64,000 nt of DNA from an uncultured Anaerolineae bacterium (lineage in GTDB: Bacteria > Chloroflexota > Anaerolineae > JAFGEY01): positions 26,552 through 90,551 of the forward strand of contig CAYVBK010000012.1 in assembly GCA_964449465.1 (NCBI GenBank), read 5' to 3'. The position numbers and the translations under genes are program-made. This document shows, in pieces, positions 1,547 to 21,152 of this stretch. Position 1 is the stretch's first letter, and each line of letters opens with the position of its first letter. Below the pieces are notes generated by a model. The model was not told the DNA's origin and did no database searches. It saw only the letters and a list, made by a program, of their open reading frames with translations.

Positions 1547-4450
1547 ATGGATCGTTCAGTCTTTCAAAACTATGTCCACCTGGTCGTAGAGCGACATGGC
1601 GCGCCTGCCCCGTCCGAGTTGCCGCGAGTCCAACGCGGGCCCGCTTTTGCCCAAAATGAATGGCGGCGCGAAAATGAAGCACTCACCCTGGCGCGCGGCC
1701 GTGTGGACGAAGAGCGGATTCTCGGTCACCTGAGTGTCATGTCGCAGATCGAGTTGATCTCTGGTTTGCCGCTGGGGGTGGCTCAACCACTCGACGAGGT
1801 CATCCAGATCGAGCCCAAACTGGTTCTACTCGGCGCTGGCGGCGCCGGCAAGACGGCTGCCCTGCGCGCCTTGCTCACGCATACCGCCGCCCAGGGCGAA
1901 TTGGTGGCGTGGATTTCGCTGCCCGATTTGATGGACAGTGTCGAATCGCTGCCCGAATACCTGTCCCAAGACGCCCAACGTCGGCTGTCTATCGAAATGC
2001 CCGCCGACGTATTTGCGCAAGCCCTGGTGAACGGCCACAGCCTGGTGTGCCTGGATGGGCTGGATGGTGTGGTCGGGCAGGCCGCGCGCTCCCAGGCGGT
2101 GCAACTCGTGCAAAAATGGGCCGAGCGATTCCCGCGCTGCCGCTTTGTGGTTGCGTGCCGCACTGATGGCGAGCAGCCCGACCTGGGTTCTCAGTTCGCC
2201 CGCTATTTTTTGACCGCGCCCCAGCATGCCGGCGACACCCTGCGCCAGGCCTGGAACGAATCGCTGGACAACTGGACGGCGGAACCCCGTCAGGCCAAAA
2301 ATTGCTACTATGCCTCCCGCCATCGCCTGTGGGCTATGCTGGCCCTGGCTATGTTGGAGCAAAACATCGCCGCCGCAACAACCGAGCAGGCCCAAGACTG
2401 GCTGGCCGCGGCCGCCGAGCGCGACAAGTCGCTCAAGCTCAACAAACGACAGGCGCATCACGAGGCCGAATTGCTCTTGAAAGAAAGCCCGGCACATCTC
2501 AAACTGCTGGCTCTGAGCAAAGACCTGATTTCATTCGAGCCGCGCCTGACTCGCGAGGTGCTGGCGGCCCAGGCCCTGGTGACGCGTGGCATCGAAAACG
2601 GCGTCGAAGCCATCTGGACGCGCCTCGCTTCACACCTGTGGGATGTCAACTGGCGCGAAACGCTGGCCCTGACCTTTCGATTCCTGGCCCAAGAGCAGCC
2701 GGCGCTGTGGAACGAACTGATCGCCCGCATCCTCACCCTGGCCGATCAAGACCCCCTCGAACTCAAACACCATCGCCATACCTTGCTGGCCGCCTCGCTG
2801 CTGGCCAGCAGCCCGGCATCGCCCGAATTGGAACAGACGCCCATCCTGGATCGGCTGATGGCCTGGTTGCACGACGCCACCGCTGCCGGACACCGGGATG
2901 CCTTGAACGTGCTGGCGCAGATGGAAGCGAATCCGGCGGCCTGGTCGGCCCTGTATGCACTGGCCCAAGAATCGGGGCTGAGTGTGGGCATCCAGGGCAG
3001 CGTGGCTTTGCTGCTCGGCCAACTGGGCATGTCATCTGCCAACGAGGCCGCCGATCTGCTGATCGGCTGGGCCGACAATGCCGACCTGCCCGATCTGGTG
3101 CGTCAATCGGCCGTCTACGGGCTGAGCCTGCTGGTTGGGCGCGGCGGCCCCGCCGATGTCATCGAACCCCGCCTGGTCGAATGGACACAGCACCCCGACC
3201 TGCGCCTGTATGTGCGCATCGATGCAGTCGAGGTGTTGGGGCGTGTGATCGCGCAGACACGCACTCCAGCCGCATTGGACGTTCTGATGGCTCTGGCGCA
3301 CGGGCAAAACGCCAAAGAAAAGAGCGTGCCGTTCTCCATCCAGGATGCCGCCGCCCGCGCCCTGCTGCAAGTTTGGGCCGCCACGCCAGATGAGGCGATG
3401 GATCAAGCCTTGTGGACGATGGCCCAAGACGAGCAGGTGCACGACAGCGTGCGCGTCTTGCTGGCCGAACCGCTGGGCCGCGCCGGTCACGCGGCCGAGA
3501 CGGCGCAAATCCTGTTGCGTCTGGGTCGCCAGGCCAGCACATTTGTGGGGCAGCAAGAATCTTTGCAGGCGTTGGCTCGGGTCGGTTATGCGGATCAGGA
3601 CATTTTGGACGGCCTCAAGGCAATGGCGCAAACCTCCGACCGCAGCATCAAGGATTTTGTGCGCCTGACCGCCGCTCATACACTGGGCCTGCTGGGCGAA
3701 CGCGACCTCTCGACCCAATATATCCTGCGTATATTGGCCGACAAGAGCATCTATCGCTCCACCCGCCTGGATGCCTTCAAGATCATCCATCAGATGGGAT
3801 GGACCGGCATCGCCGACCTGGATCAGGCCATGATCACGGTGCTGCGTGTATGGGCGCGCGAAGAAAACACCACCGAAGATGTGCGCGAGCAGGCGATGGA
3901 AATTTTGTCCTCGTTTGGGGTGGATCAAGAAGCCTTTGTGCAAGACCTGATCGCCAACCTGCAAAACAAGCGCGAATATACCCGTGTGCGTCGCGTGGCC
4001 GCCAAAGCATTGGGTGTTTTACCTGCCACATGGCAGCCGCAGGCCCGCGAAGCCCTGAACACCGAACTGTACGATCAGCAAGAAGGCAACGACAATCTGC
4101 GGGTGATGGTATCGCGCTCGCTGCTGCGTTTTGGCCCTGATGAAGTGGTCATCAAGTACCTTCAAGAAGCCACCGTCCAGTCGTACCTGGCCCTGGTACG
4201 CTATGAATCGTCACTCTACCTGGGCGAATACGGCCTGGTCGAGCCGGCCATTCCGGCCCTGATCGCCCTGATCCAGGACCCGCAAATCGTTGACACCATC
4301 CGTCAGGGTGCTCTGTATGCCCTAAGTCTGTGGGGCGGCGGTCGCCAGGAGGTAATTGACGCCGTCGCCGGAGTGTTCGATCAGCCTACCCTGGAGCCCA
4401 ACGTGCGTCACCAGGCCTATCAATGCCTCAAAACCGTTCTGTCTGCCTGA
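1547..4450 (+). CDS. NACHT-like (STAND) NTPase with long C-terminal HEAT-repeat region
   Basis: SD AAGGAG before the ATG. Walker A LVLLGAGGAGKT, Walker B region LVCLDGLDG, FVVACR strand, then many helical repeats (e.g. VRQSAVYGLSLL, VRIDAVEVLGRV, VRRVAAKALGVL). Confidence 0.78.
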   Translation: MDRSVFQNYVHLVVERHGAPAPSELPRVQRGPAFAQNEWRRENEALTLARGRVDEERILGHLSVMSQIELISGLPLGVAQPLDEVIQIEPKLVLLGAGGAGKTAALRALLTHTAAQGELVAWISLPDLMDSVESLPEYLSQDAQRRLSIEMPADVFAQALVNGHSLVCLDGLDGVVGQAARSQAVQLVQKWAERFPRCRFVVACRTDGEQPDLGSQFARYFLTAPQHAGDTLRQAWNESLDNWTAEPRQAKNCYYASRHRLWAMLALAMLEQNIAAATTEQAQDWLAAAAERDKSLKLNKRQAHHEAELLLKESPAHLKLLALSKDLISFEPRLTREVLAAQALVTRGIENGVEAIWTRLASHLWDVNWRETLALTFRFLAQEQPALWNELIARILTLADQDPLELKHHRHTLLAASLLASSPASPELEQTPILDRLMAWLHDATAAGHRDALNVLAQMEANPAAWSALYALAQESGLSVGIQGSVALLLGQLGMSSANEAADLLIGWADNADLPDLVRQSAVYGLSLLVGRGGPADVIEPRLVEWTQHPDLRLYVRIDAVEVLGRVIAQTRTPAALDVLMALAHGQNAKEKSVPFSIQDAAARALLQVWAATPDEAMDQALWTMAQDEQVHDSVRVLLAEPLGRAGHAAETAQILLRLGRQASTFVGQQESLQALARVGYADQDILDGLKAMAQTSDRSIKDFVRLTAAHTLGLLGERDLSTQYILRILADKSIYRSTRLDAFKIIHQMGWTGIADLDQAMITVLRVWAREENTTEDVREQAMEILSSFGVDQEAFVQDLIANLQNKREYTRVRRVAAKALGVLPATWQPQAREALNTELYDQQEGNDNLRVMVSRSLLRFGPDEVVIKYLQEATVQSYLALVRYESSLYLGEYGLVEPAIPALIALIQDPQIVDTIRQGALYALSLWGGGRQEVIDAVAGVFDQPTLEPNVRHQAYQCLKTVLSA

Positions 4451-16915: not shown

Positions 16916-17051
16916 CGAATGAACCTCCTCCTTGGAAAACCTGATTAAAAACGAGTCTGACAACGCCTGGGAGCCTACCCCATTACCAACCAAAGGTGAT
17001 CTCACCCCTTTCGTCGAGATTGGTCAGGTTATCCTTCTCCTCGTTGAAAAG

Positions 17052-17405
17052 TTATTCTTCAAACACCAACTGCACTTCGGGCCGATCAATGTAGGTCAAA
17101 ATAAGCCAGGATGCCGCCACCGAAAGAACATAGGTGATCAAGATAGGCCAGTTCAATGCCTGTGCCGAATAGACATTGGCCCAAAAAGTGATCAGTCGCA
17201 CAATGATGTTGAATCCCTGCGTAAAAATGAGCAATTTGCGGCTCCAGGGTTTGTGATGAACTAGCGACCATCCCAATCCGGCGCACATCAGCACAAACAG
17301 GGCAATCAAAATGGCACTGGAGGCCGACAGCGGCCAGGGAAACAGGATAAAGGGCAAAATCTGAGACCAAGCGATCCAGGTAATGATCTGTGTCTGCTTT
17401 TCCAT
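17052..17405 (-). CDS. Small integral membrane protein of unknown function
   Basis: 117 aa with about four hydrophobic segments; lies between the consensus promoter and livK. Confidence 0.65.
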   Translation of the reverse strand: MEKQTQIITWIAWSQILPFILFPWPLSASSAILIALFVLMCAGLGWSLVHHKPWSRKLLIFTQGFNIIVRLITFWANVYSAQALNWPILITYVLSVAASWLILTYIDRPEVQLVFEE

Positions 17406-17509
17406 ATCGCCAAACTTTCACATCAGGCAAAGAACATTCCGGCGTTGGAATGTCTGGGGTTGAAAAACCGGGGTTTTGTTCAGACGATTGAACGCGTATT
17501 GACTTGCAA

Positions 17510-17563
17510 CATGGTGATTTACGGTTGGATAGAGATTATATCACCATGATCTGGTTGTGTCAA
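17510..17563 (-). promoter_or_regulatory. Consensus sigma70 promoter with overlapping inverted repeat (candidate operator)
   Basis: Minus strand TTGACA (17563-17558)-N17-TATAAT (17540-17535). CATGGTGAT (17510-17518) and ATCACCATG (17540-17548) form a 9-bp inverted repeat 21 nt apart. Confidence 0.75.
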
Positions 17564-18228
17564 AAAGACACATTGAGCGGCAGCGGCATCTGTCGCGGCA
17601 GATGCCGCGCCCACGGCGCGTGCAGGGTTTCCAACACGCGCTGCGAAACCTGTGAGAGATGCTGCTCATTATGCGCAAAATCCAGGTCATCGGTTGGGAC
17701 GGTTAGCACGGCGCAAAGATTGAAATGAGCGATCCAATCCTCATAAAAGCGATTCAGCCGCTCCAAATAGGCCATAGAAATCTCTTGTTCATAATCGCGA
17801 CCGCGGCTGTGAATGCGTTCCATCAATGTAGGCACCGAAGCCTGCAAATAGATCACCAGGTCGGGCGGCGGCAGAATGTCAATCACTGTCTCGTACAACT
17901 GGCGATAGCTGGCATAATCGCGTTCGTTCATATAGCCCTGCTCGTGCAGGTTACGAGCAAAAATTTCGGCATCTTCATAGACGGTGCGATCCTGGATCAC
18001 GGTGCCGGGGCGTTTTAGAATTTGGTGATGATGGCTCAGCCGTCGCGACAAAAAGAAAATCTGCGAGTGAAAGGCCCAGGCGCGCATGTCTTGATAGAAA
18101 TCGGCCAGGTATGGGTTTTCGCCCACCGGCTCGTAAAACGGCTCCCAGAGATAATACTCGCACAATTGTCTGGCCAGCGTAGACTTGCCCACGCCGATAT
18201 TTCCGGCAATAGCGATAAATTTTTTCAT
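17560..18228 (-). CDS. Deoxynucleoside kinase (dAK/dGK/dCK family)
   Basis: IAIAGNIGVGKST, YEPV..NPYL..FY, QIFFL, DRTVYED, PDLVIYL and RIHSRGR. Confidence 0.93.
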   Translation of the reverse strand: MKKFIAIAGNIGVGKSTLARQLCEYYLWEPFYEPVGENPYLADFYQDMRAWAFHSQIFFLSRRLSHHHQILKRPGTVIQDRTVYEDAEIFARNLHEQGYMNERDYASYRQLYETVIDILPPPDLVIYLQASVPTLMERIHSRGRDYEQEISMAYLERLNRFYEDWIAHFNLCAVLTVPTDDLDFAHNEQHLSQVSQRVLETLHAPWARHLPRQMPLPLNVSF

Positions 18229-18243
18229 GGCCGGAACCGCATC

Positions 18244-18480
18244 TCAATCCAGGTCTACATCAGCCGAAGCCGGATGCAGGTATTTGATCGCCCCCTTGCT
18301 GATCCACACCTCGGGGCCTTTGGCCGGCCGGATAAAGATCTCGTATGTGTCCACGCCGGTCAGCACGCCTTTGAGCACTTTGCCATCCAAAAACGTCACC
18401 TTGACCCACTTGTTTTCCAACGCCGCCATGTAAACCGCCTGGCTTTGTCCCCAATTTTTCTTGGCCTTGTCGTTGTTCAT
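18244..18480 (-). CDS. Hfq/Sm-like (LSm) small protein, 78 aa
   Basis: SD GAAAGGA before ATG 18480. SQAVYMAAL / VTFLDGKVLKGVLTGVDTYEIFI / VWISKGAIKYLHP aligns by eye with the Hfq helix, Sm1 and Sm2 motifs. Confidence 0.72.
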   Translation of the reverse strand: MNNDKAKKNWGQSQAVYMAALENKWVKVTFLDGKVLKGVLTGVDTYEIFIRPAKGPEVWISKGAIKYLHPASADVDLD

Positions 18481-18567
18481 GCTGCTTCCTTTCAAAAGAT
18501 AATGGCTTTTCACAGGCCTATTGTACTCGAAACTCGGCTCAGGGCAAAACGGCAAAAGGCAGTCACG

Positions 18568-18674
18568 CTTGCAGTAACACCTTGCTGAAACCGAAATGTA
18601 ACCATTGCCCGTCCAACGTCTTTCAACGCGTAATAGAACTTGCAGTAACACCTTGCTGAAACCGAAATGTAACC
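18568..18674. repeat. Two identical 36-bp direct repeats separated by a 35-bp unique spacer
   Basis: CTTGCAGTAACACCTTGCTGAAACCGAAATGTAACC at 18568-18603 and 18639-18674; flanking bases differ on both sides. Confidence 0.95.
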
Positions 18675-18690
18675 GACGGCGAAAAGCAGG

Positions 18691-18720
18691 TTGACAAATT
18701 GGCCTGATGTAGGGTATACT
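18691..18720 (+). promoter_or_regulatory. sigma70-type promoter
   Basis: TTGACA (18691-18696)-N18-TATACT (18715-18720). Confidence 0.75.
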
Positions 18721-18793
18721 AGAATCAGAAATGCAACCTGCCAAATGGAGGCCAGTGTGAGCTTGGAACCTTGTCGTATATTGACGATATTTC

Positions 18794-18830
18794 AAACACC
18801 AGGTGTGTCTGTGTGAGCCTGGTGTTTTTT
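18794..18830 (+). terminator. Intrinsic terminator between the promoter and the SWIM gene
   Basis: AAACACCAGG / CCTGGTGTTT 10-bp stem followed by a T-run, about 50 nt before ATG 18878. Confidence 0.75.
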
Positions 18831-18877
18831 GTTTGGTCGCCGCCGGATGACCGGCTTGTCTTGGAAGGGAGAGTAGA

Positions 18878-19168
18878 ATGGACTCAGGGATGATCGGTAA
18901 AATTCTCAAGGCCAGGCAGTATGCAGAAGAGCGAGATCGAGTCATGTTCGACCGATTTTCTGTCACTTTTCGTGGCGAGAATAACGATCACAAGGTAGAG
19001 TATCAAAACGGAAAATGGGCCTGCACCTGCGACTTTTTCTCTTCGCATCAGTTGTGCAGTCACACCATGGCTCTGGAGCGCATCCTGGATCGTATGATCC
19101 ACCCCATTGATGAAACCGTCGCCGAGACGGACCCAACCACCTCAATGCCAGAGGTGGCACTGGCCTGA
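18878..19168 (+). CDS. Small SWIM-type zinc-finger protein
   Basis: SD GGGAGAG. WACTCDFF...LCSHTMAL matches CxC-n-CxH. Confidence 0.8.
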   Translation: MDSGMIGKILKARQYAEERDRVMFDRFSVTFRGENNDHKVEYQNGKWACTCDFFSSHQLCSHTMALERILDRMIHPIDETVAETDPTTSMPEVALA

Positions 19169-19211
19169 CACAGACCCAACTCACCGGGCCAGATAAATCC
19201 ATACATTGCAG

Positions 19212-19248
19212 AACCCCTCCCACCAAATCAGTCGGCGGGAGGGGTTTT
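19212..19248. terminator. Terminator between convergent genes
   Basis: AACCCCTCCC (19212-19221) / GGGAGGGGTT (19237-19246) stem followed by TT-G-TT. Confidence 0.7.
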
Positions 19249-19249
19249 G

Positions 19250-19903
19250 TTACAGCGTCATAATCAAGGTTTGGCCCGAATACAGCTCTTTGAATCGCTC
19301 TGCATCGTTAACAGTGCCAACCACACCGGCGCCATAGTGCATCGGCACAGCCAGGCGCGGCCGAATAGCCTGGGCAGCCTGAGCGGCCTCCTCGGCGGTC
19401 ATAACATAGGTGCCGCTGACCGGCAGCAGGGCCATGTCGCAGTGAATCTGCGCCATTTCGGGGATGTGATCGGTGTCGCCGGCAAAGTAAATGCTCTCGC
19501 CGTTTAGCGTGACCACATAACCGTTGTGCAAGGCATCTTGAGGGTGAAACGGCACGCCGGGACTGCGGAATTTGGTCAGATTGTAGGCCGGCACGGCCTG
19601 AACGGTCACATCGCCAAGAGTCAGCGTTTCGCCGGGGCGCATGACCCGCACATCGCCGCACGGCGAACCGCCCAATTTGGGCGCGGCGGTCTGATTGCAC
19701 ACGATCACCGTATGCGGGCCGCTGATTTGTTTGACATCGCCCGGCGAACAATGATCGCCGTGTTCGTGGCTGACCAAAACAATGTCGGCTGCGGGCATGC
19801 CCGGCGGCAGCTTCCAGGGATCAAAATAGATCACCGGCGGCCCGTCCAACCGAAAACTGTCATGCCCCAACCAGTGCAGTTTATCCACCAGATTGATCTT
19901 CAT
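19250..19903 (-). CDS. Metallo-beta-lactamase-fold hydrolase
   Basis: WLGHDSF, IYFDPW, SHEHGDH, IYFAGDT and AVPMHYG. Confidence 0.9.
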   Translation of the reverse strand: MKINLVDKLHWLGHDSFRLDGPPVIYFDPWKLPPGMPAADIVLVSHEHGDHCSPGDVKQISGPHTVIVCNQTAAPKLGGSPCGDVRVMRPGETLTLGDVTVQAVPAYNLTKFRSPGVPFHPQDALHNGYVVTLNGESIYFAGDTDHIPEMAQIHCDMALLPVSGTYVMTAEEAAQAAQAIRPRLAVPMHYGAGVVGTVNDAERFKELYSGQTLIMTL

Positions 19904-20390
19904 GCTCTGAACTCCTTTCTAAACCTGTATCATTGCGGCTGCGCACCAGCACATGCCAGTCACCAACCTGCACCACCTCACCGCGCTGATTCAACAATTC
20001 CAGATTCAATATCACCCTTCCCCCGCCAATGTGCGGTATAGGCCGGACTTCGTTCACTGTCAATCTGACATGCACCGTATCGCCAATATAGATAGGTTTG
20101 CTAAATTTGCAGGTCAATTCGCGAAAAGCGATCATCGAACCTTGCAACATCCCCATCTGCATGGCCAGGCCAGAAGCGATGGCCAGCCCCAGCAGCCCGT
20201 GAGCGACGCGCTGTCCAAAAGACCCCTGCGCGGCCACCACCGCATCGGTGTGCAAAGCGTGAAAATCGCCCGACAGCCCGGCAAACAGCACCACATCGGC
20301 CTCGGTGATGGTGCGCGCGGCGGTGTGTATCTCGAGCCCTGCCTGGAAATCTTGCAGGTACATGCTGTGATCGATTATGTGGTGTGTCAT
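19881..20390 (-). CDS. MaoC-like (hotdog-fold) dehydratase
   Basis: RTITEADVVLFAGLSGDFHALH, VAHGLL and FSKPIYIGDT. Confidence 0.9.
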   Translation of the reverse strand: MTHHIIDHSMYLQDFQAGLEIHTAARTITEADVVLFAGLSGDFHALHTDAVVAAQGSFGQRVAHGLLGLAIASGLAMQMGMLQGSMIAFRELTCKFSKPIYIGDTVHVRLTVNEVRPIPHIGGGRVILNLELLNQRGEVVQVGDWHVLVRSRNDTGLERSSEHEDQSGG

Positions 20391-20408
20391 CGGCTTTTCC
20401 TCTTTTCT

Positions 20409-21152
20409 CTACCGCATCCCCAAACCGCCATCCACAGAGATGACCTGCCCGGTGATAAAAGCGGCCTCGTCGGAGGCTAGAAACGCCGCCAAAGCCGCCA
20501 CTTCATCCGGGCGACCAAACCGCCCCAATGGAGTAAGGGTCAAAGCCTGCTGCTTCCACTCGGCGGCCAGGTTCGCAGTCATGTCGGTCTCGATAAAACC
20601 GGGGGCAACGGCGTTGACGGTGATGCCGCGCCCGCCCACTTCGCGCGCCAGCGAGCGGGTCAGGCCGATCAGCCCGGCTTTGGCAGCGGCATAATTGGCC
20701 TGCCCCACATTGCCCATCAGCCCGGCCACCGACGAAACATTGATGATCCGCCCCCAGCGACGGCGGATCATGCCACGCAGTACAGCCCGCGCGGCATAGA
20801 ACGCCCCATTGAGGTTGGTTTGCAGCACGGTATCCCAATCCTGGTCGGACATGCGTGCCATCAGACCATCGCGGGTGACGCCAGCATTGTTGATCAGCAC
20901 ATCCAGGGCGCCCCATTCCCGTTCGATCTGCGCCACCATCTGATTGACCACCTCGGCCGAGCGCACATCGGCCTGAATGACCATAGCCTGCCCGCCTTGT
21001 GCCTGAATTTCGGCGGCCACCGACCGGGCCGCCTCATCGCGGACGGTGTAATTGATGGCCACAGCCAGACCTTGAGCGGCCAGGCGGACGGCGATGGCTC
21101 GCCCGATGCCGCGCGACCCGCCGGTGACCAAAGCGACACGGTTGTTGTTCAT
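20409..21152 (-). CDS. fabG: 3-oxoacyl-ACP reductase (SDR)
   Basis: SD AGGAGG before ATG 21152. VTGGSRGIG, NNAGVTRD, YAAAK and VNAVAPGFIETDM. Confidence 0.9.
   Translation of the reverse strand: MNNNRVALVTGGSRGIGRAIAVRLAAQGLAVAINYTVRDEAARSVAAEIQAQGGQAMVIQADVRSAEVVNQMVAQIEREWGALDVLINNAGVTRDGLMARMSDQDWDTVLQTNLNGAFYAARAVLRGMIRRRWGRIINVSSVAGLMGNVGQANYAAAKAGLIGLTRSLAREVGGRGITVNAVAPGFIETDMTANLAAEWKQQALTLTPLGRFGRPDEVAALAAFLASDEAAFITGQVISVDGGLGMR

Follow-up and report, generated by a model that had tools for sequence, protein, structure and literature searches.

In Escherichia coli over-producing Cas1-Cas2, off-target integration is reported to give rise to 'neo-CRISPR' arrays (Nivala, Shipman & Church 2018, Nat Microbiol 3:310), and a preprint citing that work describes the evidence for natural cases as 'circumstantial… in two other species' (bioRxiv 10.1101/148544). 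In vitro, full-site integration by the Cas1-Cas2 integrase of Pyrococcus furiosus also takes place outside CRISPR, at sites similar to the repeat in their size, at their borders and at some internal bases, with one preferred site being only 43% identical to the repeat (PMC6698737); for S. thermophilus, ectopic acquisition is described as taking place within arrays (PMC7999890).

Here we describe a 36/35/36 unit, on the chromosome of an uncultured sludge/biogas bacterium, that is very probably what remains of a single, recent off-target (ectopic) event in which Cas1-Cas2 integrated a spacer. With the E. coli neo-CRISPR arrays the unit has in common a spacer-sized insert, a chromosomal site that is not an array, and a duplicated, repeat-like target of about repeat length, such that it has the look of a two-repeat, one-spacer array. 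Unlike those arrays, which arose where Cas1-Cas2 was over-produced, it appears to be a natural case, one of three apparent events in a single genome; both of its alleles are present in environmental populations and a candidate protospacer occurs in the same habitats. A further difference lies in the duplication, which here is 34-38 nt set against a native repeat of 37 nt.

The likeness to P. furiosus lies in the target, which here matches both terminal octamers of the native repeat at 7 of 8 positions each; that system was a plasmid assay with purified archaeal proteins and a 30-bp repeat, whereas ours is a chromosomal footprint known from sequence. What is described for S. thermophilus involves the internal repeats of a true array, whereas the present site is ordinary intergenic DNA, single-copy in sister strains and part of no array in the collections searched. 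With canonical and orphan arrays the unit shares the order repeat-spacer-repeat and a foreign-derived spacer of native length; its repeat does not recur, however, it has no cas neighbours and it has no recognisable leader. CreTA-type crRNA-like regulators sit inside cas operons and carry a pseudo-spacer that partly matches a nearby promoter. They too place repeat-like sequences around a spacer-like segment outside a normal array; in contrast to these, the present unit has no cas genes nearby, and nowhere in the genome is there a meaningful partial match to its insert.

An isolated repeat-insert-repeat unit

The unit occupies positions 18568-18674 of the window (the whole stretch of DNA analysed, 64,000 nucleotides), within the following features.

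17560-18228, deoxynucleoside kinase gene, in the same operon as the Sm-like gene
18244-18480, minus strand, Sm/Hfq-like gene, 78 aa (Pfam Hfq_1 20.5 bits, below the cut-off of 27)
18547-18520, minus strand, promoter-like site of the Sm-like gene
18568-18603, minus strand, duplicated target copy 1 ('pseudo-repeat'), an exact 36-mer with 2 copies in the genome
18604-18638, minus strand, inserted spacer, within a 37-nt foreign match with 0 mismatches; no other host copy; low GC
18639-18674, minus strand, duplicated target copy 2, identical to copy 1
18691-18720, plus strand, strong sigma-70-like promoter site (TTGACA / 18 nt / TATACT, 11/12)
18744-18716, minus strand, promoter-like site (9/12)
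18727-18836, plus strand, predicted terminated transcript or leader of about 105 nt, with a terminator hairpin
18878-19168, plus strand, SWIM zinc-finger gene, 96 aa (20.8 bits, above the cut-off of 19.6)

A perfect direct repeat of 36 nt, CTTGCAGTAACACCTTGCTGAAACCGAAATGTAACC, stands at 18568-18603 and again at 18639-18674, the two starts lying 71 nt apart with a unique 35-nt insert (18604-18638) between the copies. Its edges are sharp: the base preceding copy 1 is G and that preceding copy 2 is A, and the following bases are A and G, respectively. The original prediction, made from the letters of this DNA, had described two identical 36-mers with sharp boundaries around a unique 35-nt spacer, each repeat carrying GTAAC twice and CTTGC twice, and had placed the unit between a Sm-like gene and a divergent promoter with no cas genes about it; all of this is borne out, the genes in the neighbourhood being the Sm-like, deoxynucleoside kinase, SWIM and MBL-fold genes.

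When up to 3 mismatches are allowed, the 36-mer has just these 2 matches in the window (none of 100 shuffles gave any). Across the whole genome (5,313,378 bases in 89 contigs) it was counted twice on the forward strand and 0 times on the reverse. As RNA it is essentially unstructured (-4.8 kcal/mol, z -0.54), and the native repeat of the host is likewise unstructured. The insert, with a GC content of 46% against 58.5% for the genome, has no further copy in the host genome, where its partial self-matches are at best 14-20 nt long with E of at least 0.37.

An 11-nt 'echo' of the repeat, GAAATGCAACC, which had also been pointed out, is indeed present at 18728-18738. As a third, degenerate copy, on the other hand, it has been rejected, its similarity being no better than chance: the best ungapped match to the 36-mer in the flanks, 21/36 at 18703-18738 (which covers the echo), was equalled by 41 of 400 random 36-mers from the window and by 14 of 400 shuffles.

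The sigma-70-like site begins 16 nt to the right of the unit, and the 71 extra nucleotides push the two divergent promoters further apart. Over 17000-20500, on both strands, no Rfam 15 family was matched at its gathering score; the four matches returned had E of at least 0.24 and 15.8-22.5 bits, against gathering scores of 37.5-100. Among 40 relatives queried with 18230-18900, three gave a match (G001, G002 and G011), in each case to the Sm-like gene only. Two congeners keep the operon of Sm-like and deoxynucleoside kinase genes, with an intergenic region that is short and unrelated and with a different divergent neighbour; since the intergenic region is not conserved, relatives at the level of species offer no empty site for the unit.

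On the far side of the sigma-70-like site, the predicted transcript at 18727-18836 is closed by an intrinsic terminator (a GC-rich stem of 8-9 bp, followed by a U run), and could be either a small RNA or a leader that attenuates the small SWIM gene, itself widely conserved (present in 268 of 301 genomes of the class). A palindrome with a perfect stem and no loop, GCGGCATCTGTCG / CGGCAGATGCCGC, lies at 17583-17608, where the deoxynucleoside kinase gene approaches its 3' end; its sole Rfam echo is a meaningless miRNA match.

An insert-free allele in near-identical strains

Seventeen public runs, belonging to 7 studies of sludge, biogas-fermenter and biofilm metagenomes, contain part or all of the locus; no RNA run came up among them, the two labelled RNA-Seq being probably DNA. 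Seven of these runs, from 2 studies, hold 0.98 of the words of the locus and may be the source of the assembly. We compared, over 18100-19250, four runs (X8, X9, X13 and X14) that come from 4 other studies and of which none is flagged as a possible source. Each of the four has a contig in which 18566/7 is directly followed by 18638/9, so that exactly 71 nt are absent and a single 36-mer, with no insert, is left; these are Logan contigs, so that the evidence on the allele is at contig level, and an assembler working at k=31 could in principle bypass a loop made by a 36-nt repeat.

The insert-free contigs are about 99-99.5% identical to the window, with 0-5 other differences over up to 1,080 nt; record 8 of X8, for example, spans 18100-18566 and 18638-19250. 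The joint in X14 is ambiguous across 36 nt, as a single copy predicts. In X8, X9 and X13 the base at 18567 is A, not G, which we read as a strain SNP; with an A in front of the repeat the aligner shifts the joint one base to the left, and the A at 18638 is assigned to the insert because the foreign match (see below) includes it. No junction between repeat and insert was found on any contig of the four runs, and their word shares, at 0.47-0.76, lie below the 0.98 of the seven runs that hold the full unit. A comparison with related strains had been put forward in the original prediction as a way of checking the unit, and its outcome is thus one copy, without the insert, in four runs out of four.

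A foreign match to the insert

Record 7 of X14, a contig of 3,373 nt, matches the window at 18603-18639 only, at 37 of 37 nt, and has a depth of 13.8 against 3.5-4.2 for the contigs of the host; a 229-nt contig of X8 (record 11) has a match confined to the same 18603-18639, with 0 mismatches. Both run on into unrelated sequence on either side of the 37 nt and, because these flanks are unlike one another and unlike the native repeats, they are not another array. The 37-nt match on these separate contigs is best read as a candidate protospacer.

The foreign match extends one base into each copy of the 36-mer, and the boundaries are therefore ambiguous by 1 nt on either side: duplication and insert may be split as 36/35, 35/36 or 34/37, i.e. 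a duplication of 34-36 nt and an insert of 35-37 nt. Elsewhere, the insert had no match in phages and 0 in viral contigs, and its 25-nt core had 0 in metagenome contigs and in genome contigs. Among plasmids only 23-nt Ralstonia matches came up (E 0.3), which we rejected as chance candidates for the protospacer.

Native arrays and the likeness of the target to their repeat

Two arrays were found by a scan of the genome, on contigs C43 and C4.

C43:64-4084, array of 55 identical 37-nt repeats, with 54 spacers of 35-39 nt (mode 36)
C4:114112-117754, array of 20 repeats of a different 37-mer, with spacers of 37-42 nt, split by an IS1182-family element

The C4 array adjoins cas2, cas1, cas6, a CARF gene, csm5 to csm2 and cas10, making up a type III-A locus, and the cas1-cas2 pair at C4:118119-119346 (cas1 317.3 bits, cas2 96 bits) is the sole one in the assembly. 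No cas genes were found on the C43 contig, at the start of which an AT-rich sequence probably marks the leader. No Cas3 scored above the cut-off, and there was one weak Cas4-like match. The C43 repeat, at up to 3 mismatches, occurs in none of 300 other genomes of the class, and the native spacers have no conserved end bases.

Read on the minus strand, the target begins and ends GGTTACATTT...TTACTGCAAG, and the termini of the C43 repeat are GTTTCATT...ACTGAAAG. Their global alignment scores 7, a score that 0 of 500 shuffles reached, and the similarity sits at the ends, where GTTACATT faces GTTTCATT and where the last 8 nt of the minus-strand target, ACTGCAAG, are one mismatch from the native ACTGAAAG. 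Under the 35/36 split, the duplicated 35 nt start and stop exactly at these repeat-like motifs. A scan outside the array for both terminal octamers of the C43 repeat, each at 7/8 or better and within a total length of 33-41 nt, gave 11 matches among 10,626,756 positions; these amount to 9 distinct loci, and the two copies of the target are 2 of the 11.

Beyond the 36-mer itself, the flank of the unit shows no significant similarity to the visible 63 nt of the C43 leader (p 0.19). When the 36-mer was sought by a pattern in which its first 12 and its last 12 nt were fixed, 0 matches were found in 185,579 species genomes and 0 in JGI metagenome contigs. No array in these collections, therefore, has the 36-mer for its repeat; the earlier suggestion of an orphan mini-array finds there no array to which this repeat would belong.

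The insertion in the C4 array, about 2.2 kb long (L009:1-2200, equal to C4:114600-116800), interrupts it within a repeat; its IS1182 transposase is encoded at L009:175-1887, and the element has inverted ends, GCAACACTCTC. The C43 array terminates in a truncated repeat, after which comes an inverted repeat, GAGGGTTCGAC...GTCGAACCCTC (L007:4122-4245), that encloses three units resembling GGTTACG(A/C)T, and that could be either a small inserted element or a trailer structure.

Two further units in the same genome

A survey of exact direct repeats of at least 24 nt lying within 400 nt of one another gave 325 pairs with a spacer, 48 of them isolated. A repeat of 34-40 nt combined with a spacer of 33-41 nt is found in exactly 3 of the 48, namely the unit studied here and the two that follow.

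C50:1973-2079 (L010:1973-2079), 36/35/36 unit, in the intergenic stretch that separates a gamma-glutamyltranspeptidase gene from a convergent YibE/F-like one
C45:16578-16689 (L011:3579-3690), 38/36/38 unit, inside an IS21-family istA, beside istB

The repeats of the three units are mutually unrelated, and their inserts have a GC content of 44-46% (46% at C50) against the 58.5% of the genome; the contigs that carry them are typical of the genome, with GC of 0.585-0.608 and tetranucleotide correlations of 0.95-0.98. The targets at C50 and C45 have no significant similarity to either native repeat (p 0.06-0.73). Neither of these two inserts was found in viral contigs (0 matches) or matched in plasmids. 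A rescan for older units that tolerated mismatches gave no further convincing case, the mismatched pairs being judged by eye to be REP-like hairpins or coding tandem repeats.

The unit at C45 breaks the reading frame of istA. In the congener G002 there are two copies of the same IS, 92-96% identical, with one 38-mer and insert-free; the segments of G002 that match either side of the C45 unit overlap by exactly 38 nt, and hence contain a single 38-mer with the insert absent, and the pairwise alignment shows a clean gap of 74 nt. More distant IS21 relatives have the same continuity across the site. Judged from these alignments, the C45 unit is demonstrably an insertion with a target duplication. 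No second copy of this IS was found in its own genome. The istA gene at C45 seems to be broken upstream as well, with its HTH part in a separate ORF (L011:2306-2680).

For C50, no empty site was found in congeners, where only the neighbouring YibE/F gene has a match (G001 and G002). The first 15 nt of the C50 insert are identical to C45:16387-16401, inside the IS21 istA (genome-wide E 0.09), which may be chance or a hint of an IS21-like source.

A model for the origin of the unit

An insert of native length, a duplication of about repeat length, an insert-free allele, a foreign source, a repeat-like target, further events and an encoded integrase together make up the signature of Cas1-Cas2 integration, and we propose a model that proceeds as follows. 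The Cas1-Cas2 integrase would capture a 35-37-nt fragment of foreign DNA and, bypassing the leader end of the array, would attack a chromosomal intergenic site instead. Two staggered strand-transfer attacks, about 35-36 bp apart, would be made where the chromosome imitates the two termini of the native 37-nt repeat, and repair of the resulting gaps would then duplicate the target, to give the observed order of target, insert and target. As the two copies do not differ at all, and as insert-free strains are still roughly 99.5% identical at this locus, the event would be recent.

We infer Cas1-Cas2 to be the agent from these features of the sequence. The dimensions of the unit and the motifs of its target point, more specifically, to the integrase that feeds the C43-type array: the insert, at 35 (35-37) nt, falls in the range of the C43 spacers (35-39 nt), and the duplication, at 34-36 nt (36 at C50 and 38 at C45), is close to, though not equal to, the native 37-nt repeat. 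Against this stands the fact that the sole cas1-cas2 pair adjoins the C4 array, with its spacers of 37-42 nt, and that the array of best fit, on C43, is without cas genes on its contig. The integrase that feeds the C43-type array might be the Cas1-Cas2 linked to C4, or else one from a module that the assembly lacks.

The direction of change we likewise infer to be insertion, not deletion. That said, the single-copy allele could be the product of a secondary deletion, by recombination between the copies; the events would then have followed another order, but the insert would have come from the same source.

The original prediction cautioned that size alone does not make a CRISPR, and rightly so. 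The connection to CRISPR that it raised appears to be real, in the form of a stray product of integration, and did not hold in the form of an array. It also offered a plain local duplication as an explanation, which founders on the intervening 35 nt, since these are not local DNA and match a foreign contig. As for what it held would count against a CRISPR unit, relatives do have a single copy and the repeat is in no other array of the collections searched; these findings refute a conventional array, yet are exactly what ectopic integration predicts.

Alternative explanations

The unit might instead be a minimal orphan CRISPR locus, whereby the 36-mer and its neighbourhood would be a vestigial C43-related repeat and leader at which one spacer had been legitimately acquired. 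The termini of the 36-mer do resemble those of the C43 repeat, with ACTGCAAG only one position away from ACTGAAAG, and the minus-strand promoter-like site at 18744-18716 could transcribe the unit. We nevertheless hold this to be improbable, since the end-fixed pattern is absent from both collections searched, similarity to the leader is insignificant, cas1 and cas2 are on C4 only, and the supposed third copy is at chance level; moreover, the two other units stand on plainly non-CRISPR DNA, one of them within a transposase gene, which means that non-array integration occurs in this genome.

A Cas-independent insertion with duplication, either a templated insertion during break repair or the work of some unknown mobile element whose target-site duplication is long, would fit with duplication lengths (36, 36 and 38) that are not exactly the native 37. 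It would, however, have to match the dimensions of the host's own array in three independent events, with 35-36 nt inserted and 36-38 nt duplicated, and to produce in the case studied here an insert that is an exact 35-37-nt excerpt of foreign DNA at a target mimicking both ends of the repeat. To our knowledge there is no transposon family with target duplications of 36-38 bp and a payload of 35 nt, and we consider this explanation very unlikely.

Lying as it does between divergent promoter-like sites (18547-18520 on the minus strand and 18691-18720 on the plus strand), the unit could in principle be regulatory DNA: tandem operators or iterons serving both promoters, or a cassette for an RNA that the Sm-like protein binds; the original prediction had suggested tandem operators and such an RNA cassette. 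We give this hardly any credence. Near-identical strains from 4 other studies (all four runs examined) do without the second copy and the insert, which speaks against operators, as does a spacing of 71 nt that is not an integral number of helical turns; as for the cassette, no Rfam family matches, nothing links the unit to the Sm-like gene, and congeners keep that gene and its operon without the unit, next to a short and unrelated intergenic region.

Finally, that the spacer and second copy were wrongly joined in assembly is barely credible, for although we are dealing with a metagenome bin whose contamination is estimated at 7.9%, and although the seven runs with a word share of 0.98 may have supplied the assembly and hence not be independent, those runs come from 2 studies, the regular geometry is common to two other loci (one of them verified against a congener), and the contigs involved have a composition normal for the genome.

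Implications of a probable stray integration

Read as an ectopic Cas1-Cas2 integration, the unit is a natural instance of an already known process, of which natural cases with both alleles are rare. One uncultured genome would then hold three such footprints: the unit studied here, with both alleles and a candidate source; that at C45, with a 'before' and an 'after' in comparison with a sister species; and that at C50. Since the studied site mimics both ends of the native repeat, it may also say something of what the integrase reads, and we suggest that it offers a concrete, testable case for the origin of arrays and for the genomic cost of adaptation. Stray integrations, if that is what these units are, would be a measurable mutational cost of CRISPR adaptation, one of those described here splitting a transposase gene.

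It is a more daring thought, and one we regard as unlikely though worth stating, that the unit is a nascent working CRISPR locus caught in the wild. On the minus strand the unit has a 3' handle close to the native one (ACTGCAAG against ACTGAAAG) and a possible promoter, such that Cas6 and the type III-A Csm complex could, were this so, process it and direct it at the protospacer-carrying element found in the same habitats; selection could then have made the insert-bearing strain dominant in the reactors from which the assembly derives, and repeat-like chromosomal sites would be the seeds of new arrays in nature.

For collections of genomes, a simple geometric filter suggests itself, namely an isolated exact pair with the repeat and spacer dimensions of the native array. 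It comes with a warning for annotation: where a repeat-spacer-repeat stands alone, it should neither be typed as an array nor be thrown out as noise.

Short palindromic repeats elsewhere in the genome

Many contigs of this genome carry a REP-like family of short palindromic elements built on CCCGAACAAGTTCGGG (e.g. at C10:20233, C2:114549, C7:69178 and C39:47778), which on C5 form long tandem arrays (1-440 and 3639-4121). A gene for a REP-associated tyrosine transposase is located at L007:13584-14231.
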